The position numbers and the translations under genes are program-made. This document shows, one piece after another, positions 393-13,851 of a stretch of DNA of 13,851 bases. The first letter of the stretch is position 1. Each line of letters starts with the position of its first letter. Origin of the DNA: a virus (taxonomy: Duplodnaviria > Heunggongvirae > Uroviricota > Caudoviricetes); the IMG/VR virus record IMGVR_UViG_2706794691_000018; one strand, written 5' to 3'. Below the pieces are notes generated by a model. It had not been told where the DNA came from. It saw nothing but the letters and a program-made list of their open reading frames with translations, and did not search any database.

Positions 393-680
393 TCAATCCT
401 GCTCAAGATTGTAGATGAGTTTATTCTTCAGCAAAAGCAGAAAACCAGCCTTAAAACCAATCTCTTTCAAAACCCGTAATGATGTGACAAATTCGTCCTC
501 ACGCAAAATAAAACCGTCCGTCAGAAGTCCATTACAAAAATAAAATAACACAGCACCGCTCTTCCTTTGTTGAGATTGCAAACATCTAATGCGGCAATGG
601 CTGACAATCGCTCCATTCTCAACGCGCACAGCATAGAGGCCATTTTCACTAAAAATTTCACGCAATTCTTCGATTTTCAT
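393..680 (-). CDS. hypothetical small protein, 95 aa (MKIEELREIFSENGLYAVRV...)
   Basis: Minus-strand ORF with ATG at 680 preceded by GGAAGGA; lies downstream of a candidate promoter at 762-789. No family recognised. Confidence 0.5.
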   Translation of the reverse strand: MKIEELREIFSENGLYAVRVENGAIVSHCRIRCLQSQQRKSGAVLFYFCNGLLTDGFILREDEFVTSLRVLKEIGFKAGFLLLLKNKLIYNLEQD

Positions 681-761
681 CTTCAGAATCCTTCCAGATA
701 AATAGCTCTCCCCTGTTCGGGGTCCATCCCTCTTCTCCCTGCGCGCTACTTAAGTGAGTCG

Positions 762-789
762 ATTCTATCTGCGAAGGTGCGCGAATCAA
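762..789 (-). promoter_or_regulatory. putative sigma70 promoter (-35 TTGATT, 16-bp spacer, -10 TAGAAT) for the 95-aa and 117-aa genes
   Basis: Reverse complement of 784-789 is TTGATT and of 762-767 is TAGAAT; sits directly after the hok terminator and about 80 nt before the 680 start codon. Confidence 0.3.
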
Positions 790-796
790 ATTCACC

Positions 797-854
797 GGAA
801 ATAAACAACAAAAAACCCGCCGAAACGCTGAGAGATCACAGCGATGGGCGGGTT
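797..854 (-). terminator. Rho-independent terminator closing the hok transcript
   Basis: On the minus strand an 8-bp stem (814-821 with 847-854) with an inner 5-bp stem (826-830 with 839-843) is followed by TTTTTGTTGTTTATTT (reverse complement of 797-813). Confidence 0.5.
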
Positions 855-929
855 AAGTGCGGGTGCGTTGAGGATGCCTGACACATCAGAGGTGGGCGGG
901 GATGGGATCAGCTCCCCGCCCGGTCACTC

Positions 930-1085
930 TTACTTCCTGGATTCGTAGTCTACGAAGACAGCGACCTCCGTCTGGCCGGTTCGGATTCGTACCTCACAGA
1001 GGTCTTTCCTCGTTACCAGTGCCGTCACTATGACGGTTAAACAGATGACGATCAGGGCGATTAACATCGCCTTTTGCTGCTTCAT
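930..1085 (-). CDS. hok: Hok/Gef-family type I toxin, 51 aa (MKQQKAMLIALIVICLTVIVTALVTRKDLCEVRIRTGQTEVAVFVDYESRK)
   Basis: Strong resemblance to HokD/RelF and Gef as I recall them (single TM helix, LTRKDLCE, TEVAVF motif); AAGGAGAAG Shine-Dalgarno immediately upstream of ATG at 1085. The longer track ORF 930..1142 is an in-frame upstream extension. Confidence 0.8.
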   Translation of the reverse strand: MKQQKAMLIALIVICLTVIVTALVTRKDLCEVRIRTGQTEVAVFVDYESRK

Positions 1086-1291
1086 AGCCTGCTTCTCCTT
1101 GCCTTTCGGCATGTAAGAGGCTAACCTACATGTGCAAAGCATGAAATTGGCCTCAGATTAATGTTAAGCGTCTTGCCGGACGCGTAATGTTAACTGGGGC
1201 TTTTCTCTATCTGCCTTTTGGTGTTCATGCCTGAAGCAGATAGCCTCAAGCACCCGCAGTCATTCTACTTACCTCGCCAATATGAAATCAA
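1086..1291 (-). promoter_or_regulatory. hok mRNA leader with putative hok promoter (-35 TTGATT, 18-bp spacer, -10 TAGAAT, reverse complement of 1262-1291); region expected to carry mok start and antisense sok
   Basis: Promoter hexamers seen on the minus strand. Candidate antisense promoter on the plus strand is TTGCCT (1099-1104), 17-bp spacer, TAACCT (1122-1127). Inverted repeat CTATCTGC (1207-1214) with GCAGATAG (1236-1243) fits a structured leader. Confidence 0.35.
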
Positions 1292-1312
1292 TCAGAAAGG
1301 TGCCCCATAAAA

Positions 1313-1999
1313 TCACTCCTTCTCTTCTTTACCGTAGTGGAGTTGACCAATTTTGATAAGAGGGCGTCCCTGAGATTTGCGGTGTAGATTGGTATCGCGC
1401 AGAGAATACACACAGCCACAATATTCCTGCTGATAGAATTTTTCGCGCTTGCTGATTTCAATCATACGGGACGAGCCGCCCTGCTTGCGCCAGTTATAAT
1501 CCCAGTACACCATGCCCGGATAATGCGCGACGGCTCGCCGCCCACAGTCGTTAACCTGCTGCATATTTTTCCAGCGTGAAATGCCCAGTGAACTGCTGAT
1601 CACACTGAAACCATTTTCAGCGGCGTACAGCGCTGTCCGCTCAAAACGCATGTCAAAACACATGGTGCAACGGATCCCTCGTTCGGGCTCCCATTCCATT
1701 CCTTTGGCTCGTTCAAACCAGTTGTCTGTGTCGTAATCAGCATCAATAAACGGCACGCCGTGTTGTTCAGCAAAGCGAATATTCTCATCCTTACGAATTA
1801 AATACTCTTTCTGAGGATGAATGTTCGGGTTGTAGAAAAAGATGGTGTAGTCGATTCCCGAGGCCTGAAGCGCCTCCATCACCTCACCGGAACATGGAGC
1901 ACAGCAAGAGTGCAGTAGTAGTTTGTTTGCCCCGTTTGGGAGCTCCAATTTGGGCCGTTTGAAATCAGCAACTGTCATAAATATGTTTATTGGGGTCAT
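1313..1999 (-). CDS. DUF208 family protein, QueH-like putative epoxyqueuosine reductase (tRNA queuosine maturation), 228 aa
   Basis: N-terminal [11 protein letters not shown] motif plus later RCTMCFD and YCGCVYS cysteine motifs match what I recall of the Fe-S enzyme family QueH/DUF208. Start uncertain (ATG at 1999 or 1978; neither has a clear Shine-Dalgarno). Confidence 0.5.
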
Positions 2000-2146
2000 A
2001 AAAATATCAAAGAGTGTAGCATTAGAACGGGGCTATCGGAAACAGATGTGTGACTGCTCCCCGCCCTTTCGGGTGGTCTCCTGATGATTTGAGGGTGCAG
2101 AAATCCCTCCGGTTAAGGATTAAATTTTTAACAGTGCTAAATTTAA

Positions 2147-2503
2147 TTATTCAGTTCTGGATTTTGTCGCCCTGCGTATCCGCGCTTTCGCGTTACGCTC
2201 AATCTGTATCAGCTTTTCTATATTTCTCCGCCTTTCCTGTTCCTCCTGGCGCAATAGCCTTACATCATCTGCCAGTCTGGTTTCTCTTTTTGCCACAGAG
2301 AGCATCCAGTCAAACGGCTCCACAACCGCACCGCAGATTTTACAGCGGACCTGACGCTCTTTTTCGTCAACCCGTACAGAGGCGTGATGGCAATATGGTC
2401 TTTCCGATGGCTCATAAAGAAAATTAACCTGATTACGAGGGTCATCCTCTTTTACCGGAAATAAAACGATATTGCTTAACTCATCTTCTGGTTTTATTTC
2501 CAT
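2147..2503 (-). CDS. phage zinc-ribbon protein with basic coiled-coil C-terminus, 118 aa
   Basis: ATG at 2503 preceded by AAGGAGAGGAG; contains YCHH...CKICG metal-binding-like spacing followed by an R/E/K-rich helical tail. The track ORF 2147..2560 is an upstream extension. Confidence 0.55.
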   Translation of the reverse strand: MEIKPEDELSNIVLFPVKEDDPRNQVNFLYEPSERPYCHHASVRVDEKERQVRCKICGAVVEPFDWMLSVAKRETRLADDVRLLRQEEQERRRNIEKLIQIERNAKARIRRATKSRTE

Positions 2504-2560
2504 GCTCCTCTCCTTTGATGCGAATGCCAGCGGTAATTGAAGCCTGATAGCTAATTTCAT

Positions 2561-3252
2561 TCACAGTATCGCCTCCTGAAAATTACCCTGATAGAAAGCC
2601 AGTACACGCTGCATAGCTTCGCTCTTCCGGCACTCGCGACAGATTATATTCAGGCGCCTGTCGTAGCGGCGTATTTCTCCGTCAGGTAATGACCAGATAA
2701 GGTCCGGATCAACAACAACCGGTTTCCTCACCTTTACTCTCGAGAGTTTTTTGCGGGCGCTTTGCCAGTCCTTGCGAGCCTGTTCAGACGGGAATAAGCC
2801 GTAGCCAGAATTATATACATCACCACTTGCGACCAGTTCTATGCATAAGCGACCGACAGACGCACGACTGATACCTGTTTCATCTGACAACTGCCGANNN
2901 NNNNNNNNNNNNNNNNNNNNNNNNNNNNNNNNNNNNNNNNNNNNNNNNNNNNNNNNNNNNNNNNNNNNNNNNNNNNNNNNNNNNNNNNNNNNNNNNNNNN
3001 NNNNNNNNNNNNNNNNNNNNNNNNNNNNNNNNNNNNNNNNNNNNNNNNNNNNNNNNNNNNNNNNNNNNNNNNNNNNNNNNNNNNNNNNNNNNNNNNNNNN
3101 NNNNNNNNNNNNNNNNNNNNNNNNNNNNNNNNNNNNNNNNNNNNNNNCCATAGTTCGTTCAGCACTTCTTCACGACTGATATCAAGTCGCGCAGCAAGTT
3201 CTATGGATGTGGCTTTTCCCATTGCTTTCAGTGCGTCAAAAACAGTCTCCAT
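2561..3252 (-). CDS. phage HTH DNA-binding protein at the position of ydaW; interrupted by an N-run, full length unknown
   Basis: N-terminal part ([31 protein letters not shown]) starts at ATG 3252 with GGGAGGAAA upstream and overlaps the ydaV 3' end. C-terminal part (…[23 protein letters not shown]…) ends at 2561. The two parts are in different frames across the gap. Confidence 0.45.
2898..3147. other. masked or unresolved sequence (250 N)
   Basis: Run of N in the supplied sequence. Confidence 1.
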
Positions 3253-4027: not shown

Positions 4028-4855
4028 TTACCCCCTGAAGCCTGGCGGGATCGNNNNNNNNNNNNNNNNNNNNNNNNNNNNNNNNNNNNNNNNNNNNNNN
4101 NNNNNNNNNNNNNNNNNNNNNNNNNNNNNNNNNNNNNNNNNNNNNNNNNNNNNNNNNNNNNNNNNNNNNNNNNNNNNNNNNNNNNNNNNNNNNNNNNNNN
4201 NNNNNNNNNNNNNNNNNNNNNNNNNNNNNNNNNNNNNNNNNNNNNNNNNNNNNNNNNNNNNNNNNNNNNNNNNNNNNNNNNNNNNNNNNNNNNNNNNNNN
4301 NNNNNNNNNNNNNNNNNNNNNNNNNNNNNNNNNNNNNTCCAGAGGGTCAAACTTTTTGACACCTCGATTCCCCCGGGGGGGATTTAGGGGGGGATCTGTT
4401 TTTAGATCTTTATCTGTATCTTTATTAGTTGCCTTTGTGTTGACATCATGTTCAAACACCACTTCAACATCTGTTTGAACACCTGTTAAATTTCTCTCTT
4501 GTTTTGTTTGAACATCTGCTTCCTTTCTGCTTCTTCTGGCCTGAACAGATGCTTTTCCTGCGGCTGATTTTTTGGTTAATTTTTCCCTGACTGATGCCAG
4601 ATCTTCCTCAATCCGAAGATGCACCCATTCCTCGCCGTTATCGCAAAAAAACTCCTGCAAGGATGGTTCAACATCAGCCCATCGCTCGTTAGTCAGACGG
4701 GCAATTTTTGCCAGCCTGTTTTTAGGTATTGGCTTTCCTGTTTGCCAGTAATTGAACATCAGCAACAAATACGCACCATGCTCCTCTGCTGACAAATGCA
4801 TGGTGTCAGCCAGGTAATCAGCTATGTACAGTTGCATGTATGGTAATGCGGCCAT
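4028..4855 (-). CDS. ydaU: phage replication initiator-like protein (DUF1376-like N-terminus); interrupted by an N-run
   Basis: N-terminus MAALPYMQLYIADYLADTMHLSAEEHGAYLLLMFNYWQTGKP; position between ydaT and the DnaC-like gene. Start is one of ATG 4906, 4855 or 4837; the 3' end lies near 4028 but its frame cannot be verified across the gap. Confidence 0.6.
   Translation of the reverse strand: MAALPYMQLYIADYLADTMHLSAEEHGAYLLLMFNYWQTGKPIPKNRLAKIARLTNERWADVEPSLQEFFCDNGEEWVHLRIEEDLASVREKLTKKSAAGKASVQARRSRKEADVQTKQERNLTGVQTDVEVVFEHDVNTKATNKDTDKDLKTDPPLNPPRGNRGVKKFDPLXXXXXXXXXXXXXXXXXXXXXXXXXXXXXXXXXXXXXXXXXXXXXXXXXXXXXXXXXXXXXXXXXXXXXXXXXXXXXXXXXXXXXXXXXXXXXXXXIPPGFRG
4054..4337. other. masked or unresolved sequence (284 N)
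   Basis: Run of N in the supplied sequence. Confidence 1.
4449..4514. repeat. iteron-like repeats TGTT(C/T)(A/G)AACA, three copies, inside the initiator gene (candidate replication origin)
   Basis: TGTTCAAACA at 4449-4458, TGTTTGAACA at 4472-4481 and 4505-4514, with AACATCTG repeated at 4465-4472 and 4511-4518; preceded by two G7 tracts (4375-4381, 4387-4393) and an AT-rich stretch. Confidence 0.35.
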
Positions 4856-5653: not shown

Positions 5654-6091
5654 GTGAATATCATTGAACTTATGGTTCATGAAGATAAAGCGCGTAAAGA
5701 GTTCGCCAGTAGGCTTGCGCTAGCCTGTGAAAACGCTGGTTATGAACAACATGGAAGGCAGGCAGAAATTGCCCGTCGAATGAAATTAACACCAAAAGCG
5801 GTTAGCAAATGGTTTAATGGCGAAACAATTCCTCGCCGAGAGAAATTAAGGGAATTAGCAACACTCATTGGAACAACACCAACCTATCTTTTGGGAGAGG
5901 ATACAGAAGAAAGTGGACAGGTACGTTTCTATCAGGAGTTAAATCCAAGACAAAAAATCATCATTGACCTTCTGGACGAGCTCCCTGACAGTGAGACAGA
6001 TGAACTTTTAAAAACTCTTGAGGAGAAAAAACAGAAGTACAATGCAATTTACGAAGAGCTAGCACGAAAGAAAAAACAAAAAGCCTCTTAA
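5654..6091 (+). CDS. racR: CI-like prophage repressor (XRE-family HTH), 145 aa from GTG 5654 or 139 aa from ATG 5672
   Basis: HTH QAEIARRMKLTPKAVSKWFNGE with a C-terminal acidic/coiled region; divergent from ydaS at the Rac immunity position. Symbol assigned by synteny, not exact sequence recall. Confidence 0.65.
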   Translation: MNIIELMVHEDKARKEFASRLALACENAGYEQHGRQAEIARRMKLTPKAVSKWFNGETIPRREKLRELATLIGTTPTYLLGEDTEESGQVRFYQELNPRQKIIIDLLDELPDSETDELLKTLEEKKQKYNAIYEELARKKKQKAS

Positions 6092-7167: not shown

Positions 7168-7225
7168 ATCAATAACTCTCAACTGTAAGGGTATTGAAAT
7201 GTTAACACAAGCTCTCGCTGTAGGG

Positions 7226-7475
7226 NNNNNNNNNNNNNNNNNNNNNNNNNNNNNNNNNNNNNNNNNNNNNNNNNNNNNNNNNNNNNNNNNNNNNNNNNNN
7301 NNNNNNNNNNNNNNNNNNNNNNNNNNNNNNNNNNNNNNNNNNNNNNNNNNNNNNNNNNNNNNNNNNNNNNNNNNNNNNNNNNNNNNNNNNNNNNNNNNNN
7401 NNNNNNNNNNNNNNNNNNNNNNNNNNNNNNNNNNNNNNNNNNNNNNNNNNNNNNNNNNNNNNNNNNNNNNNNNNN
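7226..7475. other. masked or unresolved sequence (250 N) between sieB and kilR
   Basis: Run of N in the supplied sequence. Confidence 1.
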
Positions 7476-7616
7476 GCGCACGTGGCACAGTTAAAAGTCA
7501 TGTTAGTCCTTATTGGTTTGGGTGGGAAAGCCGACTGTAATTGTTAACTGGTTGCAGTCACCTGGAGGCACCAGGCACCGCATCAACAAAGTTCATTTGT
7601 AAAAATGGAGATAATT

Positions 7617-7838
7617 ATGATTGCACATCACTTCGGAACTGATGAAATACCACGTCAGTGTGTGACTCCTGGCGATTATGTTCTTCATGAAGGCCGGACA
7701 TATATTGCCTCGGCAAACAATATTAAAAAGCGAAAACTATATATTCGTAACCTGACCACAAAAACATGCATTACTGACCGCATGATTAAAGTCTTCCTCG
7801 GTCGTGATGGTTTACCTGTAAAGGCGGAGTCATGGTGA
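7617..7838 (+). CDS. kilR: killing protein KilR (cell-division inhibitor), 73 aa
   Basis: [46 protein letters not shown]... matches KilR; GGAG six nt upstream of ATG 7617. Confidence 0.8.
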
Positions 7839-8008
7839 TGACTAAGAAAATAAAATGTGCTTACCACCTTTGCAAAAAAGACGTTGAAGAAAGCAAAGCT
7901 ATTGAAAGAATGCTTCACTTCATGCACGGGATTTTATCAAAAGACGAACCGAGAAAATATTGCAGTGAAGCTTGTGCCGAAAAAGACCAGATGGCACATG
8001 AACTTTAA
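7838..8008 (+). CDS. ydaE: small Cys/His-rich (zinc-binding type) protein YdaE-like, 56 aa
   Basis: Hand-translated [56 protein letters not shown]; start overlaps kilR stop within ATGGTGATG (alternative start 7832). Confidence 0.6.
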   Translation: MTKKIKCAYHLCKKDVEESKAIERMLHFMHGILSKDEPRKYCSEACAEKDQMAHEL

Positions 8009-8082
8009 TTAATTGACTATTCGAAACTGAATTTATGCCAGAAATGGCAGGTATTCGCTCAACCTTAATTAAGGAGAAAAAC

Positions 8083-8358
8083 ATGATTACCAATTATGAA
8101 GCCACTGTTGTAACTACCGATGACATTGTTCACGAGGTGAATCTGGAAGGAAAGCGCATTGGCTACGTAATTAAAACAGAAAATAAAGAAACCCCATTCA
8201 CTGTGGTTGATATCGATGGTCCATCAGGCAACGTAAAAACACTTGATGAAGGTGTCAAAAAAATGTGCCTGGTGCATATCGGAAAGAATCTGCCCGCAGA
8301 AAAAAAAGCCGAATTTCTGGCAACTCTAATTGCAATGAAATTAAAAGGTGAAATCTGA
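8083..8358 (+). CDS. racC: RacC, 91 aa
   Basis: MITNYEATVVTTDDIVHEVNLEGKRIGYVIK... with AAGGAG upstream of ATG 8083; length and sequence match RacC. Confidence 0.75.
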   Translation: MITNYEATVVTTDDIVHEVNLEGKRIGYVIKTENKETPFTVVDIDGPSGNVKTLDEGVKKMCLVHIGKNLPAEKKAEFLATLIAMKLKGEI

Positions 8359-8363
8359 AAGAA

Positions 8364-8388
8364 ATAGCCTGCGTATGGCGCAGGCTAT
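8364..8388 (+). other. perfect 10-bp stem / 5-nt loop hairpin (ATAGCCTGCG tatgg CGCAGGCTAT) six nt after the racC stop; no U-tract
   Basis: Inverted repeat read directly from the sequence; possible RNA stability or processing element, or Rho-dependent pause site. Confidence 0.3.
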
Positions 8389-8459
8389 GAACAGTGTGTA
8401 TCCGGCAAGATCATTCACTGAACAAAACGAATTTTAATCTGAGTTGAGGTTAAAAAACA

Positions 8460-11060
8460 ATGAGCACAAAACCACTCTTCCTGTTACGGAAAGCGAAAAA
8501 ATCATCCGGTGAACCTGACGTCGTCCTGTGGGCAAGCAACGATTTTGAATCGACCTGTGCCACTCTGGACTACCTGATCGTTAAGTCAGGTAAAAAACTG
8601 AGCAGCTATTTTAAAGCTGTTGCCACGAATTTTCCTGTCGTTAATGACCTGCCCGCTGAAGGTGAGATCGATTTTACCTGGAGTGAACGCTATCAACTCA
8701 GCAAAGACTCCATGACATGGGAACTAAAACCGGGAGCAGCACCAGACAACGCTCACTATCAAGGCAATACCAACGTCAACGGCGAAGACATGACTGAGAT
8801 TGAGGAGAATATGCTACTCCCAATTTCTGGCCAGGAACTGCCCATTCGTTGGCTTGCTCAACACGGCAGCGAAAAACCGGTAACGCACGTTTCACGCGAC
8901 GGACTCCAGGCATTACACATTGCTCGGGCTGAAGAACTACCGGCTGTTACTGCCCTGGCTGTTTCCCACAAAACCAGCCTGCTCGACCCGCTGGAAATTC
9001 GCGAACTCCACAAACTGGTTCGTGACACTGACAAAGTTTTCCCTAATCCTGGTAATTCAAACCTGGGACTGATAACTGCTTTTTTCGAAGCATACCTGAA
9101 CGCTGACTACACCGATCGAGGACTGCTGACAAAAGAGTGGATGAAGGGTAATCGTGTTTCACACATCACTCGCACGGCTTCCGGTGCTAATGCTGGCGGC
9201 GGAAACCTCACCGATCGCGGCGAAGGTTTCGTACACGATCTGACGTCACTGGCGCGGGACGTAGCCACTGGCGTACTGGCCCGTTCAATGGATCTGGACA
9301 TCTATAACCTTCATCCGGCACACGCTAAACGCATTGAGGAAATTATCGCTGAAAATAAACCGCCCTTTTCTGTTTTCCGCGACAAATTCATCACCATGCC
9401 TGGCGGGCTGGATTATTCCCGCGCCATCGTGGTTGCGTCCGTAAAAGAAGCACCAATTGGGATCGAGGTCATCCCCGCGCACGTCACTGAATATCTGAAC
9501 AAAGTACTGACTGAAACCGATCATGCCAACCCTGATCCGGAAATCGTGGATATTGCCTGCGGTCGCTCCTCTGCCCCGATGCCGCAGCGAGTAACAGAAG
9601 AAGGAAAACAGGATGATGAAGAAAAACCGCAACCATCTGGAACAACGGCAGTTGAACAGGGAGAGGCTGAAACAATGGAACCGGACGCAACTGAACATCA
9701 TCAGGACACGCAGCCGCTGGATGCTCAGTCACAGGTAAATTCTGTTGATGCGAAATATCAGGAACTGCGGGCAGAACTCCATGAAGCCCGGAAAAACATT
9801 CCATCAAAAAATCCTGTCGATGCCGATAAATTGCTTGCTGCATCACGTGGTGAATTTGTTGACGGAATTAGCGACCCGAACGATCCGAAATGGGTAAAGG
9901 GGATCCAGACTCGCGATTGTGTGTACCAGAACCAGCCAGAAACGGAAAAAACCAGCCCGGATATGAATCAACCTGAGCCAGTAGTGCAACAGGAACCGGA
10001 AATAGCCTGCAATGCCTGCGGCCAGACTGGCGGGGATAACTGCCCTGACTGTGGTGCGGTGATGGGCGACGCAACATACCAGGAAACATTCGATGAAGAG
10101 AGTCAGGTTGAAGCTAAGGAAAATGATCCGGAGGAAATGGAAGGCGCTGAACATCCGCACAATGAGAATGCTGGCAGCGATCCGCATCGCGATTGCAGTG
10201 ATGAAACTGGCGAAGTCGCAGATCCCGTAATCGTAGAAGACATAGAGCCAGGTATTTATTACGGAATTTCGAATGAGAATTACCACGCGGGTCCCGGTGT
10301 CAGTAAGTCTCAGCTCGATGACATTGCTGATACTCCGGCACTGTATTTGTGGCGTAAAAATGCCCCCGTGGACACCACAAAGACAAAAACGCTCGATTTA
10401 GGAACCGCTTTCCACTGCCGGGTACTTGAGCCGGAAGAATTCAGTAACCGCTTTATCGTAGCACCTGAATTTAACCGCCGGACAAACTCCGGAAAAGAAG
10501 AAGAGAAAGCGTTTCTGAGGGAATGCGCAAGCACAGGAAAAACGGTTATCACTGCCGAAGAAGGCCGGAAAATTGAACTCATGTATCAGAGCGTTATGGC
10601 TTTGCCGCTGGGGCAATGGCTTGTTGAAAGCGCCGGACACGCTGAATCATCAATTTACTGGGAAGATCCTGAAACAGCAATTTTGTGTCGGTGCCGTCCG
10701 GACAAAATTATCCCTGAATTTCACTGGATCATGGACGTGAAAACTACGGCGGATATTCAACGATTCAAAACCGCTTATTACGACTACCGCTATCACGTTC
10801 AGGATGCATTCTACAGTGACGGTTATGAAGCACAGTTTGGAGTGCAGCCAACTTTCGTTTTTCTGGTTGCCAGCACAACTATTGAATGCGGACGTTATCC
10901 GGTTGAAATTTTCATGATGGGCGAAGAAGCAAAACTGGCAGGTCAGCTGGAATATCACCGCAATCTGCGAACCCTGGCTGACTGCCTCAATACCGATGAA
11001 TGGCCAGCTATTAAGACGTTATCACTGCCCCGCTGGGCTAAGGAATATGCAAATGACTAA
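8460..11060 (+). CDS. recE: exodeoxyribonuclease VIII (RecE), 866 aa
   Basis: Full-length 866-aa ORF whose N-terminus ([30 protein letters not shown]...) and C-terminal nuclease region match RecE; 3' end overlaps the recT start. Confidence 0.9.
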
Positions 11061-11905
11061 GCAACCACCAATCGCAAAAGCCGATCTGCAAAAAACTCAG
11101 GGAAACCGTGCACCAGCAGCAATTAAAAATAACGACGTGATTAGTTTTATTAACCAGCCATCAATGAAAGAGCAACTGGCAGCAGCTCTTCCACGCCATA
11201 TGACGGCTGAACGTATGATCCGTATCGCCACCACAGAAATTCGTAAAGTTCCGGCGTTAGGAAACTGTGACACTATGAGTTTTGTCAGTGCAATCGTACA
11301 GTGTTCACAGCTCGGACTTGAGCCCGGTAGCGCCCTCGGTCATGCATATTTACTGCCTTTTGGTAATAAAAACGAAAAGAGCGGTAAAAAAAACGTTCAG
11401 CTAATCATTGGCNNNNNNNNNNNNNNNNNNNNNNNNNNNNNNNNNNNNNNNNNNNNNNNNNNNNNNNNNNNNNNNNNNNNNNNNNNNNNNNNNNNNNNNN
11501 NNNNNNNNNNNNNNNNNNNNNNNNNNNNNNNNNNNNNNNNNNNNNNNNNNNNNNNNNNNNNNNNNNNNNNNNNNNNNNNNNNNNNNNNNNNNNNNNNNNN
11601 NNNNNNNNNNNNNNNNNNNNNNNNNNNNNNNNNNNNNNNNNNNNNNNNNNNNNNNNNNNNNNNNNNNNNNNNNNNNNNNNNNNNNNNNNNNNNNNNNNNN
11701 NNCTGGTAATAACGGGCCGTGGGTAACTCACTGGGAAGAAATGGCAAAGAAAACGGCTATTCGTCGCCTGTTCAAATATCTGCCCGTATCAATTGAGATC
11801 CAGCGTGCAGTATCAATGGATGAAAAGGAACCACTGACAATCGATCCTGCAGATTCCTCTGTATTAACCGGGGAATACAGTGTAATCGATAATTCAGAGG
11901 AATAA
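11053..11905 (+). CDS. recT: recombinase RecT (single-strand annealing protein); central part masked
   Basis: N-terminal 120 aa ([26 protein letters not shown]...) and C-terminal 66 aa (...[33 protein letters not shown]...SVIDNSEE) match RecT; the two parts are in different frames across the N-run. Confidence 0.8.
11413..11702. other. masked or unresolved sequence (290 N) inside recT
   Basis: Run of N in the supplied sequence. Confidence 1.
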
Positions 11906-11913
11906 TTCAGCCT

Positions 11914-11932
11914 GGCGGTGTAATGCACCGCC
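11914..11932 (+). other. 7-bp stem hairpin (GGCGGTG taatg CACCGCC) just after recT, followed by an A/T-rich tract
   Basis: Inverted repeat read from the sequence; weak intrinsic terminator or attenuator between recT and ralR. Confidence 0.3.
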
Positions 11933-11960
11933 AACTTGAAATATTTTTATGAGAAAAATT

Positions 11961-12038
11961 ATGAGATATGACAATGTTAAACCATGTCCATTTTGTGGTT
12001 GTCCATCAGTAACGGTGAAAGCCATTTCAGGATATTAC
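11961..12038 (+). CDS. ralR: restriction alleviation protein RalR/Lar, 5' portion only (3' end masked)
   Basis: MRYDNVKPCPFCGCPSVTVKAISGYY matches the RalR N-terminus (zinc-ribbon CPFCGC); the ORF runs into the N-run at 12039. Confidence 0.7.
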
Positions 12039-12255
12039 NNNNNNNNNNNNNNNNNNNNNNNNNNNNNNNNNNNNNNNNNNNNNNNNNNNNNNNNNNNNNN
12101 NNNNNNNNNNNNNNNNNNNNNNNNNNNNNNNNNNNNNNNNNNNNNNNNNNNNNNNNNNNNNNNNNNNNNNNNNNNNNNNNNNNNNNNNNNNNNNNNNNNN
12201 NNNNNNNNNNNNNNNNNNNNNNNNNNNNNNNNNNNNNNNNNNNNNNNNNNNNNNN
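12039..12255. other. masked or unresolved sequence (217 N) covering the ralR 3' end and downstream region
   Basis: Run of N in the supplied sequence. Confidence 1.
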
Positions 12256-12332
12256 TAAAACTGATAAATTTTAATTGCGAGAAACTTCAGTCCTCGTGAA
12301 TTGCATTGTATTCAAATTAAAACTTCATAGCT

Positions 12333-12346
12333 GATTATTAATAATC
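12333..12346. repeat. perfect 14-bp palindrome GATTATTAATAATC upstream of xisR
   Basis: Read directly from the sequence; lies 53 bp before the xis start in an AT-rich leader. Confidence 0.3.
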
Positions 12347-12398
12347 AACATCGGGCGTCAATTTAAGTCTAACATTGGCGCCTGCCAGAGGTGATGCG

Positions 12399-12614
12399 AT
12401 GGCACAAGTAATCTTTAATGAAGAGTGGATGGTTGAATACGGCCTGATGCTTCGCACTGGTCTGGGGGCCAGACAAATTGAAGCATACCGCCAGAACTGT
12501 TGGGTGGAAGGCTTCCACTTCAAACGAGTATCTCCTTTAGGGAAGCCAGACAGTAAGCGAGGGATTATCTGGTATAACTATCCAAAGATAAATCAGTTTA
12601 TCAAAGACTCATGA
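12399..12614 (+). CDS. xisR: excisionase, 71 aa
   Basis: [44 protein letters not shown]... matches Rac XisR (YdaQ); its stop is one nt before the intR start. Confidence 0.75.
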
Positions 12615-12615
12615 T

Positions 12616-13851
12616 ATGTCTAAATTACCAACAGGTGTCGAGATTCGAGGTAAATACATTCGCATCTGGTTCATGTTTCGAGGAAAACGATGTCGGGAAA
12701 CATTGAAAGGCTGGGAGGTTACTAACAGTAACATTAAAAAAGCCGGGAATTTAAGAGCGTTGATAGTTCATGAAATCAATTCCGGTGAGTTTGAGTATTT
12801 AAGACGTTTTCCCCAGTCCAGCACTGGGGCAAAAATGGTGACAACGAGGGTCATAAAAACGTTCGGGGAGCTTTGTGATATCTGGACAAAAATTAAAGAA
12901 ACAGAGTTAACAACAAACACAATGAAGAAAACGAAATCACAATTAAAAACACTCAGGATAATAATTTGTGAGAGTACTCCGATATCGCATATTCGTTATA
13001 GCGATATCTTAAACTACCGGAATGAACTGCTGCATGGAGAAACGCTTTACCTGGATAATCCAAGATCCAACAAAAAAGGAAGAACCGTGCGCACAGTTGA
13101 TAACTATATCGCCCTGCTCTGTTCGTTGTTACGTTTTGCGTATCAGTCGGGATTTATATCAACCAAACCATTTGAAGGAGTAAAGAAATTACAGAGAAAC
13201 AGAATAAAGCCTGACCCGTTATCTAAAACAGAATTCAATGCATTAATGGAAAGTGAAAAAGGACAGAGCCAGAACTTGTGGAAATTTGCCGTATACTCCG
13301 GGCTTCGTCACGGGGAACTGGCTGCTCTGGCGTGGGAGGATGTGGATTTCGAGAAGGGAGTTGTGAATGTCAGAAGAAACCTGACGATACTGGATATGTT
13401 CGGTCCCCCAAAAACAAATGCGGGGATCCGGACGGTAACACTACTGCAGCCTGCTCTTGAAGCACTGAAGGAGCAATACAAACTGACCGGGCATCATCGC
13501 AAAAGCGAAATCACTTTTTATCATCGGGAGTACGGCAGAACCGAAAAGCAAAAACTGCATTTTGTTTTCATGCCCAGAGTGTGTAACGGAAAACAGAAAC
13601 CTTATTACTCGGTAAGCAGTTTGGGTGCGAGATGGAATGCAGCAGTAAAACGTGCTGGTATTCGCCGCCGTAATCCGTACCATACGCGGCATACTTTTGC
13701 CTGCTGGCTGTTGACGGCAGGAGCGAACCCGGCGTTTATAGCCAGCCAGATGGGGCATGAAACTGCGCAGATGGTGTATGAAATTTACGGTATGTGGATT
13801 GATGACATGAACGACGAACAGGTAGCCATGTTGAATGCGCGGTTATCGTAG
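12616..13851 (+). CDS. intR: tyrosine-family site-specific integrase, 411 aa
   Basis: Full-length match to Rac IntR as recalled (MSKLPTGVEIRGKYIRIWFMFRGKRCRETLKGW...), with box motifs RHGELAALAWEDVD and YHTRHTFACWLL and a C-terminal catalytic Tyr region; stop TAG is the last three bases of the window. Confidence 0.9.
   Translation: MSKLPTGVEIRGKYIRIWFMFRGKRCRETLKGWEVTNSNIKKAGNLRALIVHEINSGEFEYLRRFPQSSTGAKMVTTRVIKTFGELCDIWTKIKETELTTNTMKKTKSQLKTLRIIICESTPISHIRYSDILNYRNELLHGETLYLDNPRSNKKGRTVRTVDNYIALLCSLLRFAYQSGFISTKPFEGVKKLQRNRIKPDPLSKTEFNALMESEKGQSQNLWKFAVYSGLRHGELAALAWEDVDFEKGVVNVRRNLTILDMFGPPKTNAGIRTVTLLQPALEALKEQYKLTGHHRKSEITFYHREYGRTEKQKLHFVFMPRVCNGKQKPYYSVSSLGARWNAAVKRAGIRRRNPYHTRHTFACWLLTAGANPAFIASQMGHETAQMVYEIYGMWIDDMNDEQVAMLNARLS

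Follow-up and report, generated by a model that had tools for sequence, protein, structure and literature searches.

Why should a lambdoid prophage carry a gene for the last step of queuosine (Q) formation when its host already encodes an enzyme for that step? The question is raised by an IMG/VR virus record (IMGVR_UViG_2706794691_000018), a stretch of 13,851 nucleotides (nt) whose whole length is called the window below. It represents a Rac-like lambdoid prophage, and its six-frame list contains an open reading frame (ORF) of 228 amino acids (aa) at 1313..1999 on the minus strand. A preliminary description made from the letters alone had likened the product to QueH, the cobalamin-independent epoxyqueuosine reductase, and had viewed the gene as independently expressed prophage cargo. 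Taken as a whole, the data are probably best explained by a working QueH that was captured from a bacterial chromosome, would be expressed from its own promoter and would give the lysogen a B12-independent Q step; enzyme activity, promoter function, expression in the lysogen and benefit are the parts of this account that we infer.

The QueH protein and its start codon

Both sequence and predicted structure make it highly probable that the gene product is an active QueH. The Pfam family PF02677 (QueH) matched with an expect value (E) of 1.9e-65 and 220.6 bits, relative to a cut-off of 23.5, over profile positions 1-174 of 175; given this full-length match, the ORF at 1313..1999 is not a chance ORF. 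A sequence search of the PDB found only QueH of Thermotoga maritima (TmQueH; 7lc5 and relatives; E 5e-22, residues 20-196). The AlphaFold2 (AF2) model, built from an alignment of 29 homologues (predicted local distance difference test score 80.5, predicted template modelling score 0.80), matches the adenine-nucleotide-alpha-hydrolase-like fold of the solved QueH. When the model was compared with the PDB by Foldseek, the five best matches were all TmQueH entries, with template modelling scores, TM(target), of 0.78-0.82 at ~30% identity (7lc5/7lc7 best, 0.80-0.82), followed at far lower scores by LarE, TtuA and TilS, which are adenine-nucleotide-alpha-hydrolase-type enzymes. The QueH-like identity given in the preliminary description, for which it had suggested a profile search and a comparison with the Thermotoga structure, is thus borne out by profile, sequence match and predicted fold alike.

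The conserved cysteines that had been picked out earlier are in place as well: all seven (Table 1) are intact in the prophage protein and unvarying across the 29-homologue alignment. C25 and C26 align with C9 and C10 of TmQueH, C9 being the residue mutated in PDB entry 9d86, while C104/C107 align with its RCERC motif and C187/C189 with its YCGC motif. Li et al. are said to have assigned in 2021 which QueH cysteine binds which metal, the [4Fe-4S] cluster or the adjacent iron. The remaining cysteine, Cys29, takes the place of Thermotoga Asp13 (CCAPC vs CCAPD), a residue mutated by the depositors in entry 9dco. Since 29 of the 29 aligned close proteobacterial homologues have Cys at position 29, we regard it as typical of this family branch, not as a peculiarity of the phage copy. 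Cysteine can also bind metal, and Cys29 may even be the majority form across the QueH family instead of a departure from it.

As regards the reading frame, the 228-aa ORF and the motifs quoted for it (the N-terminal Cys motif and YCGCVYS) are present, to which we add the minus strand; the start, however, has to be revised. As judged by sequence comparison, translation almost certainly begins with the ATG of position 1978, yielding a protein of 221 instead of 228 aa. Three lines of evidence led us to this placement. The Prokaryotic Genome Annotation Pipeline (PGAP) of RefSeq starts the identical gene, WP_012421537.1, 'epoxyqueuosine reductase QueH', at window position 1978. Homologues from other genera align from this ATG onward, with unrelated sequence ahead of it. 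Finally, the seven extra codons diverge faster than the gene: between the window and Escherichia phage HannyBb, 4 of their 21 nt differ and cause 3 amino-acid changes, compared with 95.6% identity over queH as a whole. The 21 nt are therefore most likely part of a non-coding, 5' untranslated leader. The non-coding gap of about 147 bp previously noted upstream is confirmed for the 228-aa ORF (147 nt to the neighboring ORF, which ends at 2147) and measures 168 nt from the start at 1978.

Distribution, selection and origin

Among 5426 complete E. coli genomes, 995 (~18%) carry queH, 985 of these with a coverage of at least 80%; carriers include sequence type 131 (ST131), avian pathogenic E. coli (APEC) O1, strain 042 as well as O157:H7 and O111 isolates. 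K-12 has only the hok part of the region. queG, in turn, is present in 5426 of the 5426 genomes, in agreement with the earlier statement that E. coli normally uses QueG, and QueH is for this reason always a second enzyme in this species.

Prophage copies of queH differ from one another at synonymous divergences (dS) of 0.15-0.29 with 2-7 amino-acid changes, corresponding to ratios of non-synonymous to synonymous divergence (dN/dS) of 0.025-0.054, and the ratio is 0.04 relative to the nearest chromosomal queH. On this substitution pattern, prophage queH is under strong purifying selection. The result bears on the idea that queH is a neutral hitch-hiker, a chromosomal fragment kept through the success of its prophage lineage. 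Such a fragment would be in keeping with the presence of queG in every host genome, with the free exchange of unrelated small genes in the slot that queH occupies (see below) and with the fact that no phenotype is known to separate Q from its precursor epoxyqueuosine (oQ). A neutral gene would have decayed, however, over a synonymous divergence of this size, whereas ~99% of the copies are near full length and the promoter-like block ahead of the gene is conserved too. Neutral carriage is thus quite improbable.

For the comparison across species, one genome per species was considered. E. albertii harbors the same prophage-borne queH (99% identity) with hok and DUF977 adjoining. The next closest proteins are those of Scandinavium (92%), Kluyvera (91%) and Enterobacter (89-90%), and identity is still 76-80% to Sphingomonas and Stenotrophomonas, which, at the level of sequence, characterizes QueH as a very slowly evolving family. 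In a tblastn search with twelve phage neighbor proteins against 80 queH loci, matches were obtained in E. albertii only. For eight queH loci the surroundings were inspected, and all of them were of the ordinary, non-phage kind; the genes flanking the copies of Scandinavium and Enterobacter, as well as those flanking the closest database protein, look like ordinary chromosomal ones (LysR regulators and acetyltransferases, for example). As the best chromosomal queH has a nucleotide identity of 86.6% (dS 0.89), capture was not a recent event involving any of the sampled species, and the donor is outside the sample. We envisage that an ancestor of Rac/lambda-like phages acquired queH from the chromosome of a member of the Enterobacteriaceae and took the native promoter along.

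The same comparison speaks to the possibility that the protein was recruited for another purpose, be it a modified base in phage DNA or the countering or forming of a tRNA-targeting defence. Phages do use 7-deazaguanine chemistry for DNA modification (PMC6884629), and a recent preprint (bioRxiv 10.64898/2026.03.05.709803) links Q to phage resistance. Yet the prophage protein is 76-92% identical to the products of chromosomal queH genes of many Proteobacteria and has kept all conserved residues, giving no sign of neofunctionalisation. Neither tgt/dpdA nor preQ0-synthesis genes are among the scanned proteins of the window or the annotated features of two related queH-carrying prophage regions, and PADLOC defence models gave no match. 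Moreover, Hutinet et al. describe QueA, QueG and QueH as being without a role in phage DNA modification (PMC6884629), in accord with the earlier remark that queH is not needed for the known routes of this kind. Of the explanations weighed here we give recruitment the least credence, and a very low one.

In 50,697 phage records searched by tblastn, the sole convincing isolate with the gene is the temperate phage HannyBb, where it is annotated 'hypothetical protein'. The remaining matches come from records that are either oversized or unannotated and may represent DNA of bacteria. Among them, 'Acinetobacter phage MD-2021a' (328-378 kb) and 'Staphylococcus phage SA 1306 Kay' (282 kb) encode QueH homologues of the type of the host genus (H123, H124 and H141); records of this unusual size may have some bacterial chromosome in them. 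In PHROGs, the family has the number phrog_3217, the label 'unknown function' (E 1.7e-138) and a 188-position profile. Because this profile begins at residue 34, the gene calls of its members appear to be truncated N-terminally, lacking the HSCCAPC motif. RefSeq, on the other hand, gives the name 'epoxyqueuosine reductase QueH' to every match listed in the queH-carrying E. coli genomes, including the exact protein in ~1000 of them, so that the novelty of the gene had been overestimated in the preliminary description. Since molecule, family and name stand in public annotation, we rate the protein as already known. The prophage context and its implication, by contrast, seem to be undescribed in the searchable literature: the full-text library searched yielded no article that deals with QueH of E. 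coli prophages, and QueA, QueG and QueH homologues were not found in the viruses analyzed by Hutinet et al. 2019 (PMC6884629).

The cassette, its slot and its upstream region

To which extent queH forms a unit of its own is evident from the mosaic breakpoints around it, which were obtained by megablast of window positions 400-2600 against the 5426 complete E. coli genomes and converted to window positions. In most queH-positive genomes, homology spans window positions 848 to 2049. In queH-negative prophages sharing both flanks, the hok-side homology ends at ~1300-1310, at the queH stop, and the replication-side homology restarts at ~2061. The slot thus defined (~1311-2060) is filled differently in prophages that do not carry queH, with DUF7167 and small ORFs in one (L004, 1732-3098) and with DUF4014, an HNH endonuclease and DUF551 in another (L005, 1733-3429). 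From this distribution of sequences, the slot between the replication genes and hok is an exchange point for cargo, and the view of queH as prophage cargo has held up, the same flanks enclosing other genes in other strains. As for the immediate upstream neighbor of queH, it varies as well: the window has a zinc-ribbon-like ORF there, ST131 and NCTC10444 have DUF977, and HannyBb has a methyltransferase fragment. Given this variation and the position of the breakpoints, we take the portable unit to be queH plus ~70 nt upstream. The complete hok/mok/sok locus directly downstream usually travels with queH, yet the two are separable: some genomes (H83 and H84) have queH but hardly any or no homology on the hok side, and in HannyBb similarity is lost immediately past the queH stop. 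On this view, present-day queH would be a 'moron'-type accessory cassette, housed in the variable slot that separates hok from the replication genes.

The DNA that moves with the gene may include its promoter. About 55-60 nt upstream of queH are kept in all four prophage contexts that were aligned. An extended -10-like element, TGCTACACT, precedes the start codon (1978) by ~43 nt; this block is unvarying in 4 of the 4 contexts, while the DNA further upstream is unrelated. TGCTACA(C/A)T, or a one-base variant of it, also precedes chromosomal queH, at -41 to -45, in Scandinavium, Kluyvera, four Enterobacter and Symbiopectobacterium, whose remaining upstream DNA does not align. Conservation of this kind would be expected if an extended -10 promoter were kept by selection, and the block is a likely candidate for one, although the candidate -35 element, TTCCGA, is weak. 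Transcription would then start near 2006, and the upstream ATG (1997-1999) would accordingly fall in the leader. Considering the ~70 nt of accompanying DNA and its conserved element, the earlier impression that the gene is expressed independently is plausible. A riboswitch or other RNA element upstream of queH was considered and rejected, as sok was the only Rfam match and the conserved leader does not have the length that a riboswitch needs.

In the wider setting, the cro-like gene is followed on the minus strand by YdaT, the replication genes (including a DnaC-like ATPase), the zinc-ribbon-like ORF, queH, hok/sok, a phrog_340 ORF and DUF1367. queH has the orientation of the early rightward operon, with the replication module on one side of it and the nin/hok-type region on the other. 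The placement between phage genes and a hok locus, as described earlier, is therefore substantiated by prophage genes on both sides and by the Pfam and Rfam matches for hok and sok (Table 1). A sigma-70-like site (TTGATT-18-TAGAAT) at 1291-1262, just past the queH stop, may be the promoter of the hok mRNA. The product of the ORF upstream of queH belongs to phrog_1621 (unknown function; E 3e-56) and has CxxC pairs and a weak, sub-threshold match to Zn_Ribbon_TF. The Rac-like left arm (7605-13851) further contains a 77-aa ORF, which we take to be KilR-like, a partly masked ORF at the position of RecT and an ORF at the position of an excisionase. FDAARGOS_944, which has the best queH match, differs in its left arm and integration site (ybhA/modC), indicating module shuffling. 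In the window, 1291 bases are masked as N (roughly 2800-3100, 4050-4340, 7220-7480, 11410-11710 and 12040-12270); these stretches break the DUF977, replication, sieB-like, recT and other ORFs, which are thus only partly readable.

Table 1. Positions of queH, its cassette and further features; window coordinates unless indicated otherwise
Feature	Position	Strand	Remarks
queH coding sequence	1313..1978	minus	221 aa + stop; start is the second ATG
Seven extra in-frame codons of the 228-aa ORF	1979..1999	minus	upstream ATG at 1997-1999
Conserved Cys of QueH (221-aa numbering)	C25, C26, C29; C104, C107; C187, C189		HSCCAPC; RCTMC; YCGC
Putative queH promoter	2013..2041	minus	possible -35 TTCCGA 2041-2036, 17-nt spacer, TG 2021-2020, -10 TACACT 2018-2013
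Portable queH cassette	1311..2049	minus	gene + ~70 nt upstream of ATG 1978; bounds are mosaic breakpoints
hok/mok/sok type I toxin-antitoxin locus	930..1255	minus	Pfam Hok/Gef E 9.8e-23 (930-1142); Rfam sok RF01794 117 bits (1080-1255)
Zinc-ribbon-like phage protein	2147..2503	minus	118 aa (137 aa as longest ORF); outside cassette
cI-like repressor	5654-6091		faces cro-like gene
RecE	8460-11060		866 aa; Exonuc_VIII + PDDEXK domain
Integrase	12616-13851		411 aa, ends at window edge
Four-tRNA array in related queH-carrying prophage L001	11102-11412 (of L001)		Gly-UCC, Thr-UGU, Arg-UCU, CAU-anticodon annotated Ile; between Q-like region and lysis genes

Proposed role and known counterparts

As an iron-sulfur, cobalamin-independent enzyme, the prophage QueH would convert oQ34 to Q34 in tRNA-Asp, -Asn, -His and -Tyr. 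According to Zallot et al. 2017, loss of queG in E. coli is reportedly complemented by QueH genes, and in Acinetobacter baylyi QueG and QueH are said to act redundantly; among known cases, this is the nearest precedent. The queH product is probably made in the lysogen, because the cassette appears to have kept a promoter of its own, and queH would also be transcribed in lytic growth, as it points in the direction of the early rightward operon. Prophage queH would thereby free the last Q step from the B12 supply, since the QueG of the host needs cobalamin and E. coli has no de novo synthesis of B12. In this context, QueG has been characterized as a cobalamin/[4Fe-4S] enzyme (PMC5175355), and the title of Frey et al. 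1988, cited in the same paper, ties oQ reduction in E. coli and Salmonella to cobamide. We lean slightly toward B12-independent Q formation in the lysogen as the role for which queH has been selected, the benefit to the lysogen being the conjectural part of this proposal.

An alternative is that QueH serves the phage: transcribed with the early operon after induction, it would complete Q on host tRNAs to favor phage translation. The gene is oriented like the cro-like, YdaT and replication genes with no terminator detected upstream, and it has been kept in an isolated, viable phage, HannyBb. However, the native-type promoter element conserved in the cassette suggests expression independent of the phage programme. 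In addition, the share of NAU among Asn/Asp/His/Tyr codons is 0.49/0.60/0.50/0.42 in 22 prophage genes, close to E. coli averages, so that no special dependence on Q is seen. The prophage tRNA genes, finally, are those for Gly, Thr, Arg and Met/Ile (Table 1), none of which is a Q substrate; no tRNA genes were found in the window or in the HannyBb region. A lytic role on the phage side would be compatible with the explanation that we prefer, but nothing specific supports it, and as the principal reason for the presence of queH it appears unlikely.

Our preferred reading, a self-expressed QueH that makes the last Q step of the lysogen independent of B12, has to be weighed against several observations that count against it. 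At the level of the protein, a scan against NCBIfam found no matching model, which by itself is neutral, and, given Cys29 in place of Asp13, the second metal site may differ from that of the only solved structure. At the level of expression, direct reading of the sequence revealed no recognizable Shine-Dalgarno motif before either ATG. A generic sigma-70 scan of 800-2700 called no promoter in 2000-2146 on the queH strand, for which reason the promoter proposal rests on comparative conservation, and the scan of the same region found no terminator-like hairpin on the minus strand, either between queH and hok or upstream of queH. With no promoter called and no terminators, queH could be expressed by read-through from the phage early promoter only; some read-through into the gene from this promoter is in any case likely. 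At the level of benefit, the selective advantage is unproven, as no growth phenotype is known to distinguish oQ from Q in E. coli. Deletion of queG likewise left growth of a metE mutant with cobamides unchanged (PMC11841063), which adds to the reasons for regarding the advantage as unproven.

At the molecular level there is nothing new in these findings, and their modest value lies in the context: lambdoid prophages would supply ~18% of complete E. coli genomes with a second route to queuosine that does not need B12, phage annotators gain a name for phrog_3217, and a natural system becomes available in which to ask if Q and its epoxide precursor differ in function. It is a rather doubtful extension of this that QueH is retained by phages because it matters in nature whether host tRNA carries oQ or Q. 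If true, one possibility would be a benefit to lysogens where B12 is scarce, such as in urine, blood or other extra-intestinal sites, and another an influence on how the phage develops or on how well tRNA-directed attack is resisted. About one fifth of E. coli strains would then have a tRNA modification state set by a prophage, and such lysogens would offer the first natural genetic handle on the purpose of the final Q step.

The closest structurally characterized counterpart is TmQueH (7lc5, 7lc7, 9deu; PF02677, formerly DUF208, COG1636), with 30-31% identity, a matching fold and the HxCCAP, RCxxC and YCGC motifs common to both proteins. The prophage QueH differs from it by being ~30 residues longer (it begins with a short lead and ends in a basic tail, as other gamma-proteobacterial QueH proteins do), by Cys29 in place of Asp13, and by being encoded on a phage instead of at a chromosomal housekeeping locus. 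Proteobacterial QueH proteins resemble it in length and C-terminal tail. Nearest of all are the chromosomal queH genes of the Enterobacteriaceae (Scandinavium, Kluyvera, Enterobacter), which share 89-92% protein identity, the same start and TGCTACA(C/A)T ~43 nt upstream, but, unlike the prophage copy, are set among ordinary chromosomal genes without adjoining phage genes. E. coli QueG (b4166) catalyzes the same reaction in the same pathway (PMC5372724, PMC5175355), yet it is not homologous to QueH, depends on B12 and is a core enzyme (5426/5426), whereas queH is accessory (995/5426).

With the morons of the lambdoid nin/hok region, queH has in common that it is a single gene between modules and polymorphic for presence and absence; the putative promoter of its own would be a further similarity. 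It departs from typical morons in that no terminator of its own was detected, and also in content: moron cargo is usually a virulence, exclusion or defence factor, while here it is a housekeeping tRNA-modification enzyme. The Acinetobacter-type QueH proteins (H123/H124) are 79% identical to that of the prophage. In A. baylyi ADP1, both reductase genes are reportedly chromosomal, whereas in E. coli the second enzyme comes with the prophage.

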